Positions 1,332 through 41,087 of a DNA stretch of 64,000 bases are shown piece after piece; position 1 is the first letter of the stretch, and each line of letters opens with the position of its first letter. The stretch covers positions 54,622,001 to 54,686,000 of the forward strand of contig OX597830.1 in assembly GCA_951406725.2 (NCBI GenBank). Reading direction: 5' to 3'. The position numbers and the translations under genes are program-made. This stretch comes from Octopus vulgaris (lineage: Eukaryota). The notes under the pieces were generated by a model. The model worked only from the letters and a program-made list of their open reading frames with translations. It was not told where the DNA came from and did not search any database.

Positions 1332-2531
<1,200 letters not shown>

Positions 2532-2775
2532 GGTATAAGTTAGAAGCGTTTAAACCCTCTAAGGGATAGATGCATCCAGAGGCACTCCTGATAATTACCT
2601 CAGTATGTATGGTCCTTGTTATAAAGTATACGATAATAGGTCATTTAAAAAGTAAACCATAGTTTAATGTACACATAAACGATAAGAAAATGGAGGAATG
2701 AATAACAACTGAAGTGGGTCTTCGGTGCTAAAAAGCCATTATTTAATTAGTTAAGGGAGATGAGAGTATGAGTGA

Positions 2776-2852
2776 GTCTACAGCTGTTTCTATGTACCAT
2801 TATGAGGTAAATATGTATTTACCTCGTTGCAAATGGTAGACATCATCAGAAC
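2776..2852 (-). ncRNA. Minimal hammerhead ribozyme motif (Penelope-like element fragment)
   Basis: The minus strand reads gtt-CTGATGA-tgtctaccatt...gaggtaaat acat atttacctc..aatggtacata-GAAAC-agct-GTA-gac: full core, long stem II, palindromic stem III. Confidence 0.7.
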
Positions 2853-2870
2853 GAAAAAGGAGAATAGAGC

Positions 2871-2900
<30 letters not shown>

Positions 2901-2901
<1 letters not shown>

Positions 2902-3257
2902 TAGAAGAAATGAGGTAATCAGAAGATCGGATGGTTCATATTTACAGATATTTATTTATATATTACATTTTTTACATATATATCATATTATTCAGATCAT
3001 TAGCGCTTCCTCCTCATCCACTTCACCCTCTTGTGCTGTCTTGTTCCTCCCCACCACTACGAAACTCTATAAAATGATTAAAATTCCCCACAAAGGAATT
3101 ATTTTGATTTGAAAACCCCACTAGAATGGGAGAAAGCTCTAATGATCTGAATGATATGATCTGAATGATATGATATATATATGTAAAAAATGCAATATAT
3201 AAATAAATATCTGTAAATATGAACCATCCGATCTTCTGATTACCTCATTTCTTCTAA
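2901..3257. repeat. ~110-bp inverted repeat with ~115-bp spacer, between (TA)n tracts
   Basis: 2901-3013 (ttagaagaaatgaggtaatcagaagatcggatggttcatatttacag...) is the reverse complement of 3129-3257 (...ctgtaaatatgaaccatccgatcttctgattacctcatttcttctaa). Confidence 0.9.
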
Positions 3258-3292
3258 TATATAATACCTGCACATCATCTCCAAACCTTCCA

Positions 3293-3329
<37 letters not shown>

Positions 3330-3333
<4 letters not shown>

Positions 3334-3438
3334 TTACTTAGCATAAGTAACAGAGTTACTCAAGGTCCGAGTGTTTCGTGCCAACGCACGAAACACTCGG
3401 ATCATGAGTAACTCTGTTACTTATGCTAAGTATTAATA
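3330..3438. repeat. Near-perfect hairpin/palindrome (~45-50-bp arms, 4-nt loop)
   Basis: agcataagtaacagagttactca..tccgagtgtttcgtgc CAAC gcacgaaacactcgga..tgagtaactctgttacttatgct. Confidence 0.9.
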
Positions 3439-3663
3439 AAAGTATATGTATTCTCATATTTTGTGTTCTATCTTTCCTGTTTGTATCAAGATACTTATAT
3501 ATATACATACAGGTATATTAAAATTATAATTAAGGGTATCTAAAAGATACCACCATGCTAGATAAAGCAGCAAAAACTTGACTCTAAAACCACATTAAAT
3601 GTTCATACAGCACCAGGAGAGAAGACAAAGAGACAAAATAAACTAGCAAAAATTATTGGATGA

Positions 3664-3719
3664 ATCCAGATACCGGATTTCTGGCTCTGCACAAGAAATG
3701 CTTTGCTTCATCAGTGGAA
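3664..3719 (-). ncRNA. Hammerhead ribozyme-like motif (Penelope-like fragment)
   Basis: Minus strand: ttcca-CTGATGA-agcaaag...gagcca-GAAA-tccggt-ATC-tggat. Stem I is tcca/tgga; stem II is degenerate. Confidence 0.5.
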
Positions 3720-3942
3720 TACACGCAACAAATATGTGTATGTATGTATATATATATATATGTAAAAAAATACAAACTGTGACAAGAACGCAAAACATTT
3801 AGAAGACGATACAAAAAACACGGACGGGACATTCGAAGCCTTCAATCTTCAGTCAAGAACCGGATCATTCTCGCAATTTCGGCTGATTTATATATATACG
3901 AATACAACATACGAATACTTACGTATACGCACGTATACACAC

Positions 3943-5521
3943 ATGCTTCGATTGATCATCACGCGGGACCAAGTCAAACGTGTTATTCAAGGCCTCGATG
4001 TCAACAAGGGTCACGGCCCTGACGGCATACACCCACGGGTTATCAAAGCGTTGGCTCCGGTCATCTGCGAGCCCTTAACACGACTATTCAATATGTCATT
4101 GGCGACGGGTGTTATACCTGCAGACTGGAGAACAGCGATAATCTGCCCAATTTTCAAGAAAGGGAGCCGCGAAGACCCGCTTAACTACCGACCGGTTTCC
4201 CTTACATCAATAATCAGCAAGATGTTCGAAACCATCCTTAAGAAAAGTATGATGCTCCACCTCCTAAACACAGCCTCGATCACTGATTCCCAACACGGCT
4301 TCGTGCCGAAGAGATCATGCTTGACCAACTTACTAGTAATGGAAGAATTGGTGACGCGCATCCTCGATGATAGTGATGCTGTTGACATCGTTTTATTGGA
4401 CTTTGCCAAAGCTTTTGACTCGGTAAACCACCGCCTACTACTTGTCAAGCTTCAAGCATATAGTTTCCATCCGGATATTGTACGATGGGTTGGTGCCTTC
4501 CTTTCAGATCGCTCCTTCCAAGTTCAAGTTAATGGTTCGCGGTCCGACGTCTCCAGTGCGAGCAGTGGCGTGCCTCAAGGTTCAGTGCTTGGGCCCTTGT
4601 TGTTCTTAGTCTTCATAAATGACTTGCCCGACGACCTCACGCAACACACCCTTCTATTTGCCGACGATATCAAACTGGTCGCTCCTCGCGGTAGTATAGA
4701 GGATCTTCGTCGATGCCTCCACCAAATTTGGAAGTGGTCTAACGATTGGGACCTGTGTCTGAACGTGTCAAAGTGCTGTCATCTGCCTGTCGGCTCTACT
4801 CCTGCAACTCAACTTGATTTCGAGCCGGGTCGTCTGCTGCTGGAGAGGACCGATCAGGTAAAGGACCTGGGTATCTTGGTGGATTCCTCCTTTTCGCCTT
4901 CGGCCCAGTGCGTCCATGCTGCCAACAAAGCGCGCGGAATCCTGTTTTTGATTCGACGGTCATTCGGAATGCTCACAGCAGCCATATTCCTGCCACTCTA
5001 TGTCACGCTGGTGAGACCCATATTGGAGTATGGGATTCAAGCCTCTTCTCCTTATCTCCTCAAAGACATACAGCACCTCGAAAGAGTCCAGAGGCTGGCT
5101 ACCCGCATGGTTCATGGTCTCAAAAATTTGTCCTACGAAGAAAGGCTGAGGACGCTCGACCTTTGTTCTCTTGAAAAACGCCGCCGCCGTGGTGATCTCA
5201 TTCTCGCCCACAACATCATAAGCGGGAAGTGTAACCTCTCGAAAGAGCTGTTCTTCACTCCTGCTCCGGAGCGTCGGCTGCGGGGTCATTCCGAAAAGCT
5301 CTACCTGCGACGATTTCATCTCAATCGAAGGAGAGGAGCTTTCTCCGTCCGGGTTGCGGATCCGTGGAACAAGCTGCCAGACGAGATGGTGAAGATGCCG
5401 ACGACCGCTTTGTTCAAAGCCTCCCTGGACCTCAAGTGGCCTGAACTCTTTACATGAACACCACCCTGTACTTAACTCCATGTCCCCCTAAATGGCCTTG
5501 CTATTTGCTTTTGAGCCAAAT

Positions 5522-27130: not shown

Positions 27131-27554
27131 TCTTATTTCTTATTTCTTTATTGCCCACAAGGGGCTAAACACAGAGGGGACAAACAAGGACAGACAAACG
27201 GATTAAGTCGATTACATCGATCCCAGTGCGTAACTGGTACTTAATTTATCGACCCCGAAAGGATGAAAGGCAAAGTCGACCTCGGTGGAATTTGAACTCA
27301 GAACATAACGGCAGGCGAAATACGTATTTCTTTATTACCCACAAGGGGCTAAACACAGAGGGGACAAACAAGGACAGACATAGGTATTAAGTCGATTACA
27401 TCGACCCCAGTGCGTAACTGGTGCTTAATTTATCGACCCCGAAAGGATGAAAGGCAAAGTTGACCTCGGTGGAATTTGAACTCAGAACATAACGGCAGGC
27501 GAAATACGGCTACGCATTTCGCCCGGCGTGCTAACGTTTCTGCCAACTCGCCTT
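27131..27554 (-). mobile_element. Family M SINE dimer (one head, two bodies)
   Basis: Internal junction aaagaaata|cgtatttcgcctgccg at ~27324. Confidence 0.92.
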
Positions 27555-32254: not shown

Positions 32255-32858
32255 TATTTCTTTACTGCCCACAAGGGACTAAACATAGAGGGGACAAACA
32301 AGGACAGACAAGGGGATTAAGTCGATTACATCGATCCCAGTGCGTAACTGGTACTTGTTTAATCGACCCCGAAAGGATGAAAGGCAAACTCGACCTCGGC
32401 GGAATTTGAACTCAGAACGTAACGGCAGACGAAATACCTATTTCTTTACTACCCACAAGGGGCTAAACACAGAGAAGACAAACAAAGACAGACAAACGGA
32501 TTATGTCGATTATATCAACCCCAGCGCGTAAATGGTACTTATTTAATCGACCCCGAAATGATGAAAAGCAAAGTTGACCTCGGCGGAATTTGAACTCAGA
32601 ACATAGCGCCAGACGAAATACCTATTTCTATTTCTTTATTACCCACAAGGGTCTAAACACAGAGGGGACAAATAAGGACAGACAAGCGTATTAAGTCGAT
32701 TACATCGACCCCAGTGCGTAACTGGTACTAATTTATCGACCCCGAAAGGATGGAAGGCAAAGTTGACCTCGGCGGAATCTGAACTCAGAACGTAGCGGCA
32801 GACGAAATACCGCTAAGCATTTCGTCCGGCGTGCTAACGTTTCTGCCAGCTCGCCACT
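32255..32858 (-). mobile_element. Family M SINE trimer (one head, three bodies)
   Basis: Two internal junctions gaaata|ggtatttcgtctg (~32438, ~32622). The whole array is flanked by one direct repeat, tgctataagtgt (32241-32252 / 32863-32874). Confidence 0.92.
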
Positions 32859-34726: not shown

Positions 34727-35105
34727 GTATGTATGTATGTATCTATGTATGTATGTATGTATGTATGTATGTATGTGTGCATGTGAGTGTATGTGTGTGT
34801 CTGCATGTGTGTGTGCGTGTGTGTGTGTGTAAGTACATGAAATAGTGACTATCAAAATAACGATATACCTATAACTCTATATTTAACAGTTTGAAAAGTT
34901 GGTGAACTGGCAGAAACGTTAGCACACCGGCCGAAATGCGTAGCCGTATTTCGTCTGCCGCACATGTGTTCGTGAAGTAAGAATTACTGTTAACAACTGT
35001 TGTTTCTTGTTAAACTGTTGAATAACTTAACTGTTGGAGTTTTCAATTGAAAACACTTAGTGCTTGTGGTAGCACGCGTTGTTCATTCCCCCTTTGGGGG
35101 GAAGA

Positions 35106-36634
35106 ATGTCGTCTAGCATGGAGCCTACCGTTGGAGCAGAAATACTTGTTTCTCCTGTTGAGAGGAGGAAATACATGTCCGGCGAGGAGCCAACTACAGA
35201 CAAGGAAATAGGGGTTTCCCCCGCTACAAGAAGGAATAGCAGAGAGGATAATATATTTGATATTTTTGGAGATGTGTCTGAGAGCTCGTCAGAACTTTCA
35301 CCAGAAGAGTTTCCGACTTTGCCAGAGAACAAAGGCATTGTGTCGAAGAGAATAATTGATGTGCCTAGCATCCAGATAGAACCAAAAAATGGAAAAAAAA
35401 GTTTTGCGTTGGCTGCTGGGGGTGGAACCCAGATACTGTCGACGAATAAAAGCGAAATTATGAAATACAGCAAAATGATGGAAATAAATGACAACAGTGT
35501 GAAAATTGAACCTCCGCAAAAGTTATTACAGGAAGAAAAGCAAAAAACAATAATTTTCAAAACATATTGTCTACAAAATAGAAAAATTGAAAGAATGTCA
35601 GAAGAGAAAATAGAAAAGTGCTTAAAACCAATATTGGGCGACGTAGTATTTCTGAGAAGAGGAAAAAATTCGGAACGGTGGAAGTAAGGTTCACCAATAA
35701 AGAAATAGCACACAAGAACTCAGTGGAAACGTTGAAAACGAACGACGTGGAGTTAATACCCTATTATATGGGGACGAGGACGTCGCGAATAAAAATTACA
35801 AGGGTCCCGCCAGAGGTCGAACCTATGTGGTTGTTGGCGGCAGTCCTAATCAAAGAGGTAGAAAAAATTACTCTCCTCCAGGCTACCGCTACGGAAAACC
35901 CACGCTGGGATGGTAAAACAATTAATCTTCTCATTCAAGCGGACCCTAAAATAATTCAAACAATTCCTGAGACAATTGAGGTAGGGGAGGAGAACCTCGT
36001 GGTGTTTGTTGAGGGCCGAAAACCTCGATGTTTTTTATGTGGTCAATTAGGCCACATTCGAAGGAACTGCAAGGAAAATGAAGAAGAGGAGGAAGAGGAG
36101 AAAAAAGACAAAGAGGAAGAAGATAAAGAAGAAACAGAATAGAAAAAAACAACAAACAAAAGAAAAATACAACCAGCAACCCAGCCGAGAGCGGCGACTA
36201 CTACAGAACAACGACCAAAAAAGACTGCCAGAAGAGAAAAAGAAGAAAAAGGCATAATAGCCGTATACACTAAAGATACTGAGCTCATGAGAGACATTCA
36301 ACTCATAAAGACTGTAAAAAAAATTGATAACCTTTCAGAGGAATTTATCAATTACGACATATATGAAGTCTCAAATAAGACTTATAGAATTCTACAAAAT
36401 AAGTACAGAAAGACTGTATCTTCATTGAGATTAGATTTTAACAAGTCGATATTTCATGGATTACCAGCTCCGATCCCGCGAGAAAAGGAAAAGGTGGAGA
36501 TTCCCCCTCCACCTGATAATTCTGTGTCGGTGGTGAGACGGGATTTTGACAAATCTATTTCCCAAGACCGTCCACCTCCGACCCTGGATAAAAAAAAGGT
36601 GGAGGGTCCCCCTCCACCGGACAATCCTAATTAA
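35106..36634 (+). pseudogene. Tx1 ORF1 (gag-like, CCHC zinc knuckle), one frameshift and one premature stop
   Basis: KSFALAA motif. Frameshift in the A-run at ~35663. Knuckle CFLCGQLGHIRRNC. The in-frame TAG at 36140-36142 (probably TGG) is followed by an open frame to TAA 36634. Confidence 0.85.
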
Positions 36635-36645
36635 ACAGGTAAGTG

Positions 36646-39600
36646 ATGGCTATTCACATTGGTTGTTTAAATGTTCATGGCCTGTTGTCAAGCTGGAAGC
36701 AAGGACGCTTTCTGAATGACATCAGGTCGAGAAATTTGGATGTAATTGTTGCAACGGAAACCCGGGTGAAGGGGCCAAGAGATCTGCTCCCCCTCCTGAA
36801 CGGCTACGAGAAATACGTTTCTCCGAGTCGGGCGGGAGGTGGGGGTGGGGTGTTGGTCCTACTAAAAAGAAACCGGGTAGCCGAGAAAAAGTTGGTTTTT
36901 TCTGACCCAGAAGGCAGGCTGGTCGTTCTCGACTTGACATTCAGTTGTGGCAAGACAATCAGGCTGGTCGCTATTTATGCACCAAACATTATTGGCCCGC
37001 AAACTGAATATTTTCGTGGCCTAGGAAAGTTCCTAGCCACGTCGCATTCACTAGTAGTGTTAGGAGACTCTAATACAATATGTGCAGCACACACAGATTG
37101 TGTTGGCTCAAACTCGAACATGAACAGAAAATGTAACACAGGCTTTCGGGATCTGCTAAGTCAATTTCAGCTAGCAGATCCATATAGGTTGGAGCACCCG
37201 AACACTCCACAGTGGACGTGGTCAAATAGTGACGGGTCTACCAGAACATATCTAGATAGGATTTTAATTAGAGAAAAAGATAAGTCCATAGTTGAGTGTC
37301 CACAGTTTTTTCTAGTCAGCTACAGTGACCACAAGATGGTTACCTGTAAACTGACGGTAGATAAGTTGCATAGACAGGGATCTGGCTACTGGAAACTCAA
37401 TACGTCCCTTTTGGCGATTGAGGAGTACAGAAAGCGGATCAAGATGTTAATACAGAGGGCATTAACAGGTACCATCATTAATAACAAATGGTGGTACGCC
37501 CTAAAAAGAGCCATCAAATATGAGTCTATTAGGTTTAGCATAAGTTTAGCTAAGAAGGGACGTAAAATAGGAGATGGTCTAGTTAAGGAACTAGAAGAAG
37601 CCTGGAGGACTGGTAATACAGACCAAGCGAGGGTGAAAAGACTGGAGTTAAACCAGCATCTTGAAGCCCACCACATGGGAAGTATTACCAGAGCTAAGTT
37701 ACGTGCAATGGGAAGTGAAGGAATCAAAGCCGCTGGATGGGCCCGAGTGGTGGAAGCTCGGCAAGGAAATAGTTCCTCTATTCGGTCTTTGACGAATCAA
37801 AATGGTGTCTTGATAAACGAACCCGAGAAAATGTGTGAGGTCTTTCGGGAGTACTTCGCCCAGCTGTTCGGGGGTGACGGCGGTCCTGGTGGTGGGAGAG
37901 CCCTCGAGGACTTTCTTACCGGGCTGCCGTGCCTCTCGGGGTCGGATGCGGAGTCTTGCGAAGGGCCAATCACACTTGAGGAGGTGATGGAGGCTTTGGC
38001 CGATTGTAAAGCGGGTAAGTCACCGGGACTTGATGGTCTTCCGTACGAGCTGTATAAATGTATGCCAGACTTGTTCGGGCAACTACTGACTGACGTGTAC
38101 GCGAACTGGAAACAGAATGGGTTTATCCCCAGATCTGTGCGCCGGGGAGTAGTGACGTTGGTCAGAAAGGACCCGGACAAGGGGGACGTTCTAGAGAATT
38201 TCAGGCCCATCACTCTGTTAAACGCAGAAGTGAAGATTTTGGCCAAGGTTCTAGCAAAAAGGTTGGCGCGTGTCGCGAATGGTATAGTCGGGGAGGCACA
38301 GACATGTGCCATCCCAGGCAGAACCATTCAGGATACCCTCCATCTTATTCGCTATACCATAGAGAGGTTTGGTAATAAATCTGGCAAAGGTGGGGCATTG
38401 GTGCATTTGGACCAGTCTAAAGCTTTTGATAGGGTTGACCATCGATACCTAGCGACTGTACTTGCGCGGTTTGGCCTGGGCCTTGGCTTCCTCAGGTGGT
38501 TTATCGCTTTGTACCACAACATTGACTCGATAGTTCGGGTGAACGGTTTCCTTTCGAAGCCGTTCTGCATCAGACGCTCGGTTCGTCAAGGATGTCCGCT
38601 TTCACCACTTTTGTATGTGATGGCTCTCGAGCCATTACTGCAAAGGTTGAGTGGCATCCCGAGAGAACCAGGACTAGAGGAGTTTGTTACGGCTTTCGCG
38701 GATGATATCACTATCAGTGTAACCACAGTGGTACGCCTACGTGAAGTAGGTAAGACTATTGAGGCTTACGAGGAGGTAGCAGGAGCAAAGATTAACCGGG
38801 AAAAGTCGGTCGGCTTGCAGCTCGGCACCTGGGTTGGCAAGTCGATGCCTTCAGACAGTGTTGTTAGGCGCTGGACGGAGGGACCGGTTAAGTTGCTGGG
38901 AGTCTGGTTTGGACCAGGCCTCCAGATAGAGAAGAACTGGACGGAGGTATTGAGCAGGGTGGCTGCAGTAGTCAAGACTTGGTCTTGGCGGTGGCTATCC
39001 CTGAAAGGGAGGGCGGAAGTGGCCAATGTGTTTATCGCATCGGTCATTACCTACCGCCTGACTGTCGTGCCCTGTCCGGATTCGTGGTTGATCAGGTTGG
39101 AGAGACAGCTCTTTCGCTTTTTGTGGAAGGGCAGGTCGCCACTTGTGAAACGCTCTGTCTGCTGTCAAAAGCCTTTAAATGGAGGTTTAGGGATGCCTTG
39201 GTTAATGATGCGCAGACATGCGTTGAGGTTGAGGCACCTCTGGATTCTCCTGGATAGTGAACGGGTGTGGTCTCCGCTGGCCAGACAAATGTTCCCTGAG
39301 TTCAAGAGTTTTTGCGAACAGGAAGCCTGGTGTTCTCGTAGACCGAGGTCGAGTGAGTGGCATAAAGAGTGCCGTAAGGCCCTCTTGCTGTTCCGGCGCT
39401 CGGGCAACGCCAGCGGTGGGGGTTCCACACGGATTTTATATAGTGGGTTGGTAGAGTCTGAATGCGACGATGGCCTGGGGTCGACTCTAGGTCTCGGATT
39501 TATTCAACTGGACAACTTGTTTCATCGTACATTCGGGTTGAGAACGTTGGACAACTTCCAAAAGTCCTTAACCTGGCAATGCTACAGAGGTGCCTTGCCC

Positions 39601-40047
39601 GTTTGGGATAAGCTCGCAAGACATGGTAAACGTCAGTCGCCGACCTGTCCAAGATGCGGTGGGGACAGGGAAACCGTCCCTCACGCTATTGTTCAGTGTC
39701 CGGAGATAACTGAAATGTGGGCTTATGCTGAACATCTGTTGTCCGGCGAAGGAAGAGTACGGCTGTCGACTGAGTCAATTATAAAAATTGACCCACCGGG
39801 AGTTCTAACGAACGAAGGTAAGAATTGTTTTCTCACGGTTGTAGCAATAGCAAAAGAGGCTGTATGGAATACTAGGATAAAAGGAATTAAGACAGGCAAC
39901 TTTATCTCTGGTGACAATTTACGATCCTTTTTTTCTTTTCATTTGAAAAGGAAACTGTGGCTGGAGAAGAGGTGTCTGTCAGAGTGTACGTTCCAAAAGA
40001 GATGGAAGTATGTTGCACGAGTGTTGTGCGTGCAAGGAACCGTGTGA
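36646..40047 (+). CDS. Tx1 ORF2: APE endonuclease + reverse transcriptase + C-terminal CCHC finger (1133 aa)
   Basis: EN motifs LNVHGL, ETR, IYAP, GDSN (usually GDFN), LDRI, SDH. YWKLN. RT motifs KSPGLDG, NFRPITLLN, DQSKAFDRV, QGCPLSP, FADD. Finger CPRC....ETVPH....C. Confidence 0.95.
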   Translation: MAIHIGCLNVHGLLSSWKQGRFLNDIRSRNLDVIVATETRVKGPRDLLPLLNGYEKYVSPSRAGGGGGVLVLLKRNRVAEKKLVFSDPEGRLVVLDLTFSCGKTIRLVAIYAPNIIGPQTEYFRGLGKFLATSHSLVVLGDSNTICAAHTDCVGSNSNMNRKCNTGFRDLLSQFQLADPYRLEHPNTPQWTWSNSDGSTRTYLDRILIREKDKSIVECPQFFLVSYSDHKMVTCKLTVDKLHRQGSGYWKLNTSLLAIEEYRKRIKMLIQRALTGTIINNKWWYALKRAIKYESIRFSISLAKKGRKIGDGLVKELEEAWRTGNTDQARVKRLELNQHLEAHHMGSITRAKLRAMGSEGIKAAGWARVVEARQGNSSSIRSLTNQNGVLINEPEKMCEVFREYFAQLFGGDGGPGGGRALEDFLTGLPCLSGSDAESCEGPITLEEVMEALADCKAGKSPGLDGLPYELYKCMPDLFGQLLTDVYANWKQNGFIPRSVRRGVVTLVRKDPDKGDVLENFRPITLLNAEVKILAKVLAKRLARVANGIVGEAQTCAIPGRTIQDTLHLIRYTIERFGNKSGKGGALVHLDQSKAFDRVDHRYLATVLARFGLGLGFLRWFIALYHNIDSIVRVNGFLSKPFCIRRSVRQGCPLSPLLYVMALEPLLQRLSGIPREPGLEEFVTAFADDITISVTTVVRLREVGKTIEAYEEVAGAKINREKSVGLQLGTWVGKSMPSDSVVRRWTEGPVKLLGVWFGPGLQIEKNWTEVLSRVAAVVKTWSWRWLSLKGRAEVANVFIASVITYRLTVVPCPDSWLIRLERQLFRFLWKGRSPLVKRSVCCQKPLNGGLGMPWLMMRRHALRLRHLWILLDSERVWSPLARQMFPEFKSFCEQEAWCSRRPRSSEWHKECRKALLLFRRSGNASGGGSTRILYSGLVESECDDGLGSTLGLGFIQLDNLFHRTFGLRTLDNFQKSLTWQCYRGALPVWDKLARHGKRQSPTCPRCGGDRETVPHAIVQCPEITEMWAYAEHLLSGEGRVRLSTESIIKIDPPGVLTNEGKNCFLTVVAIAKEAVWNTRIKGIKTGNFISGDNLRSFFSFHLKRKLWLEKRCLSECTFQKRWKYVARVLCVQGTV

Positions 40048-41087
40048 ATAGACGAGGAAAAAAAAAAAAAAGGAAAAATAAAAAGGTATCAGCGGTAGAT
40101 CGGGGCTTGTGGGATCGGAGCGTAACTTGATCATCGCTTCATTTGTATTGTTTTTGTACTGTGTATTCCATTCGATTTTTATGTATTGTATTTTATTTTT
40201 GATGTCACATTTATGTAAAATCATATCGATTCACTGATCCCATCAGTTGTACTGTCCATATCTATGTTTGGCCCCCGGTGGGCAATAAAGAAATTCGTAT
40301 TTCGTCTGCCGTTACGTTCTGAGTTCAAATTCCGCTGAGGTCGACTTTGCCTTTCATCCTTTCGGGGTCGATAAATTAAGTACCAGTTACGCACTGGGGA
40401 CGATGTAATCGACTTAATCCCCTTGTCTGTCCTTGTTTGTCCTCTCTGTGTTTAGCCCCTCAGTGGGTAGTAAAGAAATAGGTATTTCGTCTGTCTTTAT
40501 GTTCTAAGTTCAAATTCAGCCGAGGTCGACTTTACCTTTCATCATTTCGGGGGTTGATAAATTAAATACCAGTTGCGTACTGGAGGCGATCTAATCAACT
40601 GACCCCCTCCCCAAAAATTTCGGGCATTGTGCCTAGAGTAGAAAAGTATATTTAACAGTTTGCACATTAGAACGTGCAACTTTTGTCTTCAAAAAAAATT
40701 TCGCTTATAATATTTGTGTGTAAAAATATGTCGATCAGAGTTTTGAATTATACAAGCGGAATGTCAGAGTGTTGCAGCGTGATTACTCCTCCGCAAACAG
40801 CGAATGGCCTATGGACGACTAAGACACTGTCTGTGACTGAGGAGGCGTAATTACACTGATACACGTATATGGCAGTCCGCCAATGTCATTGAAAGCCCGG
40901 CTCGATATTTTTTTTACACATCTGTACATACAAAATGTAAAAAATACTGATGCGAACAGCTTCCATCTTTCACGTTCCACACTGTTATACAATATATTAT
41001 AACGTAATACACACACACACACACGCATGCACACGCATATATGCACATATACATACATATGTATGTATATATAGTAAATATATACAT

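Follow-up and report, generated by a model that had tools for sequence, protein, structure and literature searches.

A Tx1-like LINE lineage of octopus inserts at a single base of an abundant SINE and likely copies that SINE

Introduction

Alu and L1 insert into the A-tails of Alu elements, and in this way a short interspersed element (SINE) creates targets for the endonuclease of its partner long interspersed element (LINE). The Alu A-tail, however, is a loose low-complexity motif rather than a single internal base, and L1 is not confined to Alu. A closer parallel has been described in crocodilians, where Tx1-Mar LINEs are found together with the SINE family SINEU (Kojima 2015, PMC4494074); specificity of Tx1 LINEs for repeats, targets shared between a LINE and a SINE, and tandem SINEs are all already published there. 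Here we analyze a LINE nested in a SINE within a 64,000-nucleotide stretch of the Octopus vulgaris genome (C17:54622001-54686000 of a 2.8-Gb assembly), which we call the window and whose positions serve as coordinates. We believe that the LINE lineage inserts at one base of this SINE and probably copies a tail-bearing SINE subfamily, which inserts at the same base.

L1-Tx1 families have been listed in an octopus, in a paper whose available text contains neither the word target nor the word nested (PMC13282606). The available text of four other papers (PMC4758252, PMC3747384, PMC5786205 and PMC4824008) holds nothing on a LINE that targets its own SINE. No description of a SINE serving a LINE as both cargo and target turned up in the literature searched, which excluded Repbase, Dfam and subscription papers, and against that literature the SINE itself as the target of the LINE that likely copies it appears to be new.

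Results

The nested LINE in the window

The abundant SINE carries the site in question in its anticodon-like arm, at a point between the A and B boxes. An earlier note on the window had placed a LINE between the A- and B-box-like motifs of a SINE, with a perfect 16-bp target duplication. This was borne out (Table 1), as CGTATTTCGTCTGCCG flanks the LINE both at 34945 and at 40296. The second 16-bp duplication that the note saw around the whole nest is also real, and its 16-mer occurs in the whole window just twice, at 34878 and 40647. Two forms of the site exist, G (the head ends in GCTTAGC) and C (GCGTAGC), and the SINE bodies carry either a LINE-like "A" tail or another, "B" tail. The four SINE-SINE junctions named by the note (40481, 32438, 32622 and 27324) do fall at the junction base of the LINE, with an extra AGAAAT before 32622; three of them are of the G form and one is C, while the LINE junction is C. 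The target motif has 26 matches in the window compared with a mean of 5.45 in shuffled sequence, and the tail motif 13 compared with 0.20. The nest itself fits insertion in place: its head is diverged distally and of the C type near the site, and a young A body is followed by an old B body.

On the minus strand at window:50520-50850, two tandem A-tail SINEs lie outside any SINE, with the same GGTATATATGATG between and after them. This repeat is a duplicated non-SINE target that was used again.

Table 1 Features of the nest and of other SINE multimers in the window.
Feature	Position	Strand	Remarks
Outer target-site duplication of the host SINE nest, 5' copy	34878..34893	+	identical to 40647-40662
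SINE head, tRNA-like, with A-box-like motif 34908-34918	34894..34944	+	C-type near the site, more diverged upstream
LINE target duplication, 5' copy	34945..34960	+	last three bases ambiguous, often LINE-derived
Full-length L1-group (Tx1-like) LINE, young C-targeting subfamily, end GAAATT, without poly(A)	34961..40295	+	
ORF1 region, three frames in the window copy; zinc knuckle PF00098	35106..36634	+	
ORF2: apurinic-type endonuclease, reverse transcriptase, zf-RVT	36646..40047	+	Pfam; open frame
3' tail common to LINE, SINE and sister LINE families	40247..40295	+	
LINE target duplication, 3' copy (C variant of the site)	40296..40311	+	
SINE body 1, B-box-like motif 40321-40331, LINE-like A tail	40296..40480	+	young (1 rare variant)
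SINE body 2, from G variant of the site, B tail	40481..40646	+	older (7 rare variants)
Outer target-site duplication, 3' copy	40647..40662	+	identical to 34878-34893
SINE dimer, head-body-body	27142..27545	-	C-type head, C junction at 27324
SINE trimer, head-body-body-body	32256..32850	-	G-type head, G junctions at 32622 and 32438

Insertion of the LINE at one SINE base

Young copies of the LINE were counted with a LINE-only 31-mer near the 3' end, which has 49 exact matches; all 49 were inspected, and two of them represent a single duplicated locus. In 48 the LINE ends at the exact SINE base, 47 of these with a SINE body, so the collection of flanks that the earlier note had proposed indicates a target-specific element. 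The ends continue into C-GTATTTCG and the SINE body in 46 cases, and the remainder comprises one decayed site with body, one with 15 bp of the site alone and one outside a SINE. At the other end of the element, a SINE head precedes 30 of the 30 best full-length 5' ends, each with its own outer flank.

Ten copies are 5'-truncated, with breaks at LINE positions 2253-5201, and nine of them join a SINE head directly; at these junctions there are either duplications (0-8 bp, and ~40 bp in one copy) or short deletions. Truncated copies have been used as a test against hitchhiking (Kojima 2015, PMC4494074), and their direct junctions with SINE heads show that the LINE inserted independently. The tenth copy, L106, is located in non-SINE DNA with an 11-13 bp duplication starting CGTA, and it fixes the end of the LINE as GAAATT. 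A wider pattern recovered 112 LINE-type ends, 78 of them followed exactly by [GC]GTATT (51 C and 27 G). Inspection of 27 of the other 34 gave six ends of the lineage at decayed SINE sites, one chimera at the site, three lineage ends (two insertions) off-SINE, nine SINE tails, four other LINE families and four bare tails. The off-SINE insertions retain the motif (CGTA in L106, GATAT in L262).

The 16-bp duplication is perfect in the window but in just 8 of 35 full-length pairs; bases 1-13 are identical in 24 of the 35, and the last three bases are often derived from the LINE. Base 14 is T in 20 of the 35 5' copies and C in 16 of their 3' partners, a mismatch which indicates that the 5' end of the LINE itself overlaps the target through sequence resemblance. 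A fixed 16-bp stagger was rejected, since the duplications of truncated copies vary and base 14 differs in 19 of 35 pairs. Two copies 1.26 Mb apart on C9 (L086 and L087), in different SINEs, have four variants in common over the first ~95 bp of the body and then diverge, possibly through read-through templating or gene conversion.

A nearly identical copy of the LINE is present in sequencing runs under four organism labels (A-D), and the young family is therefore not confined to this assembly. The LINE is covered by contigs from four runs; those closest to the junctions extend 28 (X1), 30 (X20) and 12 (X17) letters into the SINE, which is below the bridging limit, and these were not counted. 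No RNA run was present among the runs listed as containing the LINE.

Insertion of the SINE at the same base

Genome-wide, there are 84,663 exact A-tail ends and 25,109 junctions of tail and site. Roughly 30% of LINE-like tails thus abut the site, an approximate value as the tail and junction patterns differ by four leading letters. At 140 loci a full SINE head directly follows the first 11-25 bases of the site. Among the first 20 listed of these loci, 16 hold an entire A-tail SINE, after which the site recurs and the host SINE continues; one of the other four is off-SINE with a site-like duplication, one has its duplication elsewhere and two are unclassified. All 16 whole-SINE insertions are at G or decayed-G sites, and a B tail is found in none of them. 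In two (L211 and L213) a private variant is repeated on both sides of the inserted SINE, which indicates that the duplication is target-derived and that the nick is 5' of the G. In five of the 16 the target was an earlier junction of tail and site, direct evidence that the duplicated site is reused.

The subtypes of the tail differ in their preferences, in a sample enriched by design for junctions at the main site. SINEs with TAGT or TAAT tails outside SINEs prefer G[GA]TA-like sites; for those with CAAT tails the preferred places are AT-rich sequence and a further SINE site close to the A box. This second SINE-into-SINE site is ~33 bases upstream, at the A box, and there the tail, mostly of the CAAT type, is followed by AGAAACGTTAGC (L006, L022, L104, L110, L112, L133, L150, L158, L202 and L219).

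SINE dimers and arrays

More than 99% of the SINE junctions lack a second head. Across 49 head-first pairs, downstream units exceed upstream ones in age (4.4 vs 2.6 rare variants, p=6e-4). Rare variants common to both units amount to 28 of 150 in inner pairs of arrays and 19 of 91 in A-to-A first pairs, compared with 1-6% in controls; the sharing between inner pairs indicates that longer arrays grow partly by local duplication. Of the A-to-B dimers, 14 of 16 have an A-type base 14 in the first unit, and 8 of 16 have a B-type head marker at -29, compared with 6 of 29 A-to-A dimers (p=0.053). This pattern fits a join inside the homologous head, collapse of a ~65-bp head repeat, or some re-copying of dimers. 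Head repeats of ~65 bp are also found expanded among the head-after-site loci.

That all arrays are in-situ insertions which keep the head of their target is not supported, as 5-7 of the 49 first pairs combine a C-type head with a G junction. A head-plus-site unit of ~64-69 bp is expanded eightfold (G000:C10:17996024-17996506) and fourfold (C13:69036075-69036320) as a minisatellite, and headless SINE arrays of 10 and 6 units (G000:C1:4676260-4677963 and C1:4607430-4608384) have a satellite-like spacing of 184-187 bp.

Two site variants and the endonuclease

Intact heads of the G and C forms are nearly equal in number (17,244 and 15,426). SINE junctions are nevertheless of the G form in 99 of the first 100 listed, whereas the window LINE belongs to a subfamily that inserts at C sites (51 of 51 exact C ends). 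Among 20 further LINE loci, 11 older copies (84-94% identity to the window copy) end at G sites; one is off-SINE, three are at C or decayed-C sites, and the remaining five come from a different family or offer no end that could be used. A tree built from 41 ORF2 3' segments groups the C copies, together with the off-SINE L169, in a short-branched clade (support 0.98) within longer-branched G copies. The heads of truncated copies are informative because they must come from the target, and the young ones have a C-type head in six of seven informative cases (p=0.046). These sequence comparisons indicate that the lineage switched from the G variant, used by older LINEs and at nearly all SINE junctions, to the C variant used by young LINEs. 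C heads themselves appear younger, with 6% vs 10% mismatch (14 and 20 copies), and the two changes from the G-type to the C-type head retain pairing in the predicted anticodon-like stem.

Residue 199 of ORF2 is T in all 11 C copies, S in all six G copies, and S in all ten sisters, while the off-SINE L169 has V. In alignment, the residue corresponds to T200 of L1, in the betaB6-betaB5 hairpin. Exchange of this hairpin loop changed the nicking preference, with loop shape mattering more than single residues (PMC1950540); residue 199 is therefore a candidate only. Other fixed differences between the C and G endonucleases are found at 114-119, 146, 166, 172, 210 and 215, together with a two-residue insertion near 156. 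In the endonuclease motif around residue ~142 of the window ORF2, most young copies read GDSN, and older and sister copies GDFN. The older copies L161 and L164-L168 show 84-92% identity over ORF2 and ~65% over ORF1, and a different 5' end follows a 10-bp duplication in L161 and L174.

The shared tail and the partner of the SINE

The resemblance between the LINE 3' end and the SINE tail, pointed out in the earlier note, is well above chance: over the last ~48 nt of the LINE, 37 of 48 columns match, with a score of 46 against 28 for the best of 1000 shuffles. With the old G-type copy L165, the SINE majority tail matches in 43 of 48 columns. Sister LINE families with other targets carry the tail as well, which indicates that it is of LINE origin; passage of the tail from SINE to LINE is thus unlikely. 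These sisters (67-73% amino-acid identity) are in many cases intact and often tandem, have AATAAAAC-like ends, and insert in other repeats and into the 5' ends of one another. L121-L130 include many intact 1132-codon ORF2 frames in head-to-tail arrays of ~5.26 kb (for example G000:C22:14228435-14244942 and C3:34858685-34864789), which insert close to one another's 5' ends or to those of related repeats, and one is located in a minisatellite. They may represent a wider nest of repeat-targeting LINEs with one common tail.

The subfamily of the window copy does not appear to be the main mobilizer of the SINE, because it uses C sites while SINE junctions are nearly all G and intact sites of the two forms are about equally available. 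The best match to the SINE tail comes from an older G-type LINE, which favors older members as the partner. It is therefore likely that the older, G-cutting members of the lineage were the main mobilizers.

Classification of the elements

ORF2 contains an endonuclease (PF03372), a reverse transcriptase (RT; PF00078) and zf-RVT (PF13966), the set of the L1 group. It is closer to human LINE-1 ORF2p (E 2e-64), its best relative of solved structure, than to R2 (1e-20). A protein search gave no near relative with a name, the best identities being 28-33%. ORF1 is one open frame of 519 codons in copy L091 and is split over three frames in the window copy; both contain the CCHC zinc knuckle PF00098 of the Tx1-type ORF1 rather than the Transposase_22 type of L1, and neither matched the PF02994 or ZCCHC3 RBD models. 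A quick RT tree of 45 rows, built with no named Tx1 references, put the window RT in a set of 22 rows (SH-aLRT 98) with P0004, which has ZCCHC3-type ORF1 domains, and apart from P0015/P0016, which have the L1 ORF1 (PF02994). Sequence-specific insertion with target duplication is likewise of the Tx1 type, and on these sequence features the LINE likely belongs to the Tx1 clade.

The SINE has A- and B-box-like motifs, more than 32,000 exact heads and outer duplications, as expected of SINE2 elements. No tRNA was assigned to its head at the thresholds of ARAGORN or Rfam. It may resemble MetaSINE, in which a 66-bp Meta domain follows the head. The common 3' tail, in both the window LINE and L165, is that of a SINE-LINE pair.

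Discussion

Comparison of the copies shows the site itself, its use by both LINE and SINE, independent truncated insertions and the reuse of duplicated sites. Mobilization of the SINE in trans by LINE proteins is suggested by the tail and the shared site. The most likely mechanism is target-primed reverse transcription with an endonuclease that reads sequence. On the bottom strand the enzyme would nick immediately 5' of [G/C]GTATTT, and on the top strand it would usually do so ~10-17 nt downstream. The LINE RNA, which has AATAAA at its extreme end and lacks poly(A) at the junction, might extend into the body of the SINE and anneal to the nicked primer, which would sharpen specificity by analogy to R2Ol. 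The 5' end of the LINE resembles the target and could join it by microhomology. SINE insertion into a SINE would usually leave one head, through homologous joining or collapse of the ~65-bp head repeat, and local duplication may follow. Every new SINE copy would be a new target, and insertion at the site would leave a reusable copy. A LINE insertion parts the A and B boxes and would silence that SINE copy, a negligible cost with ~100 LINE ends and more than 80,000 SINE tails.

Several observations weigh against this explanation. About 70% of SINE tails are away from the SINE site compared with ~5% of LINE ends, and a second head is kept at 140 junctions compared with the 25,109 of tail and site. 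CAAT tails are found at the second and the main site in a ratio of 7 to 5, yet the window LINE has a CAAT tail. The age gap in head-first pairs rests on those ending in B (A-to-A p=0.45). In 4 of 21 cases a rare variant within positions 1-16 of the downstream unit recurs in the upstream one (control 3-6%), less than plain target duplication predicts, and head divergence is uncorrelated with the age of either unit (p 0.27 and 0.16). The tail of the sister families scores 54-58, between the old G-type copy (70) and the window copy (46), and another mobilizing partner among these families is possible.

The strongest rival, which we nevertheless consider unlikely, is that the LINE is target-specific while another, less specific family among the sisters moves the SINE. 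Self-insertion would then be a minor side effect, and headless arrays would arise mostly from re-copied dimers, template switching and local duplication. The sisters share the tail and are commoner and more intact; the excess of headless junctions, the rare variants shared within inner and A-to-A first pairs, and A-to-B dimer heads younger than B-monomer heads all agree with this. Yet the sisters end in AATAAAAC-like sequence and land in other repeats, whereas the SINE agrees with the SINE-targeting lineage in its AAAGAAAT end and its G[GA]TA preference. A sister family is also disfavored by whole-SINE insertions that carry a duplication at the exact base, and by the finding that second units of different dimers have at least three common variants in 3 of 1176 pairs. 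Moreover, 16 of the 49 first pairs join two different tail types, so they are not simple duplications.

Tethering to RNA polymerase III (Pol III) factors is known for the TRE elements of Dictyostelium. Guidance of the LINE by such factors bound at the A and B boxes, instead of by DNA sequence, would account for a site between the boxes and for the second SINE hot spot at the A box. We regard it as improbable, since the motif is kept off-SINE, junctions of tail and site without an A box of their own get reused, and the G and C variants are distinguished. Finally, a single LINE-in-SINE event with later copying of the head-LINE-body composite, to which the almost uniformly C-type heads beside full-length copies, the partly element-derived 5' flank seen at base 14 and the body variants common to L086 and L087 could point, is largely refuted and barely credible, as truncated copies join heads at ten different LINE positions, downstream bodies and tails differ (A, B and arrays), and one copy is outside any SINE.

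We therefore return to a LINE lineage that inserts at one SINE base and probably copies the SINE. The earlier note had gone further, making the SINE both cargo and target of the window LINE in a feedback loop in which each event duplicates the target. The SINE as target and its self-insertion hold, but the window subfamily is probably not the main mobilizer. Duplicated sites are indeed reused by whole-SINE insertions, while a second head is present in less than 1% of junctions. The site does spread, though new landing sites come mainly from every new SINE copy that carries it.

A loop of escape and chase is a more tentative idea, and one we would not expect to hold. The SINE carries the cut site of its LINE, and the newer SINE might have escaped by two bases, T to G upstream and G to C at the site, with the stem pair kept and the old enzyme no longer able to hit it. 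The LINE might then have followed through the Ser-to-Thr change at ORF2 residue 199, in the hairpin loop of the endonuclease, together with changes in two other loops. If true, this would be a datable case of single-base target co-evolution between a LINE and its own SINE.

The usual one-way parasitism of SINE on LINE would here become two-way, the LINE making harmless landing sites by spreading the SINE. A mechanism is thereby offered for the tens of thousands of SINE multimers in one genome. The lineage also provides a closely related pair of endonucleases differing in one target base, with intact ORF2 copies for the young form, and this natural pair makes specificity change in apurinic-type LINE endonucleases directly testable.

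The system most similar to that of octopus is Tx1-Mar/SINEU, in which a Tx1 LINE and an inferred SINE have a common target repeat. In that system a duplicated target is enclosed by tandem SINEs, different partners use the two hot spots, and truncated copies served against hitchhiking; there, however, the target is a third element, Mariner-N4_AMi (PMC4494074), whereas the octopus LINE has the SINE as its target, with 48 of 49 young copies at one base. Tx1L in Tx1D, Keno in U2 genes and Kibi/Koshi in microsatellites are likewise apurinic-endonuclease LINEs with multicopy targets (PMC4494074), but these targets are not retroposed by the LINE, hence no loop is formed. For R2Ol, R1Bm and SART1Bm, pairing of target sequence at the RNA 3' end with the nicked DNA fixes the start of reverse transcription (PMC6795142, PMC7265360). 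The read-through proposed for the octopus LINE is analogous, although those elements belong to other clades with other targets (rDNA, telomere). Dada DNA transposons have hot spots at the anticodon arm and A box of tRNA genes, like the two sites of the SINE, but they are DNA transposons whose targets are true tRNA genes, and the word SINE is absent from the main text of that paper (PMC8869645). The tandem arrays of bivalves and squamates also consist of SINE-derived units and have been ascribed to unequal recombination, with no fixed endonuclease site or Tx1 partner named in the available text (PMC11481361, PMC10702118), whereas in octopus the units meet at the base where the LINE itself inserts.

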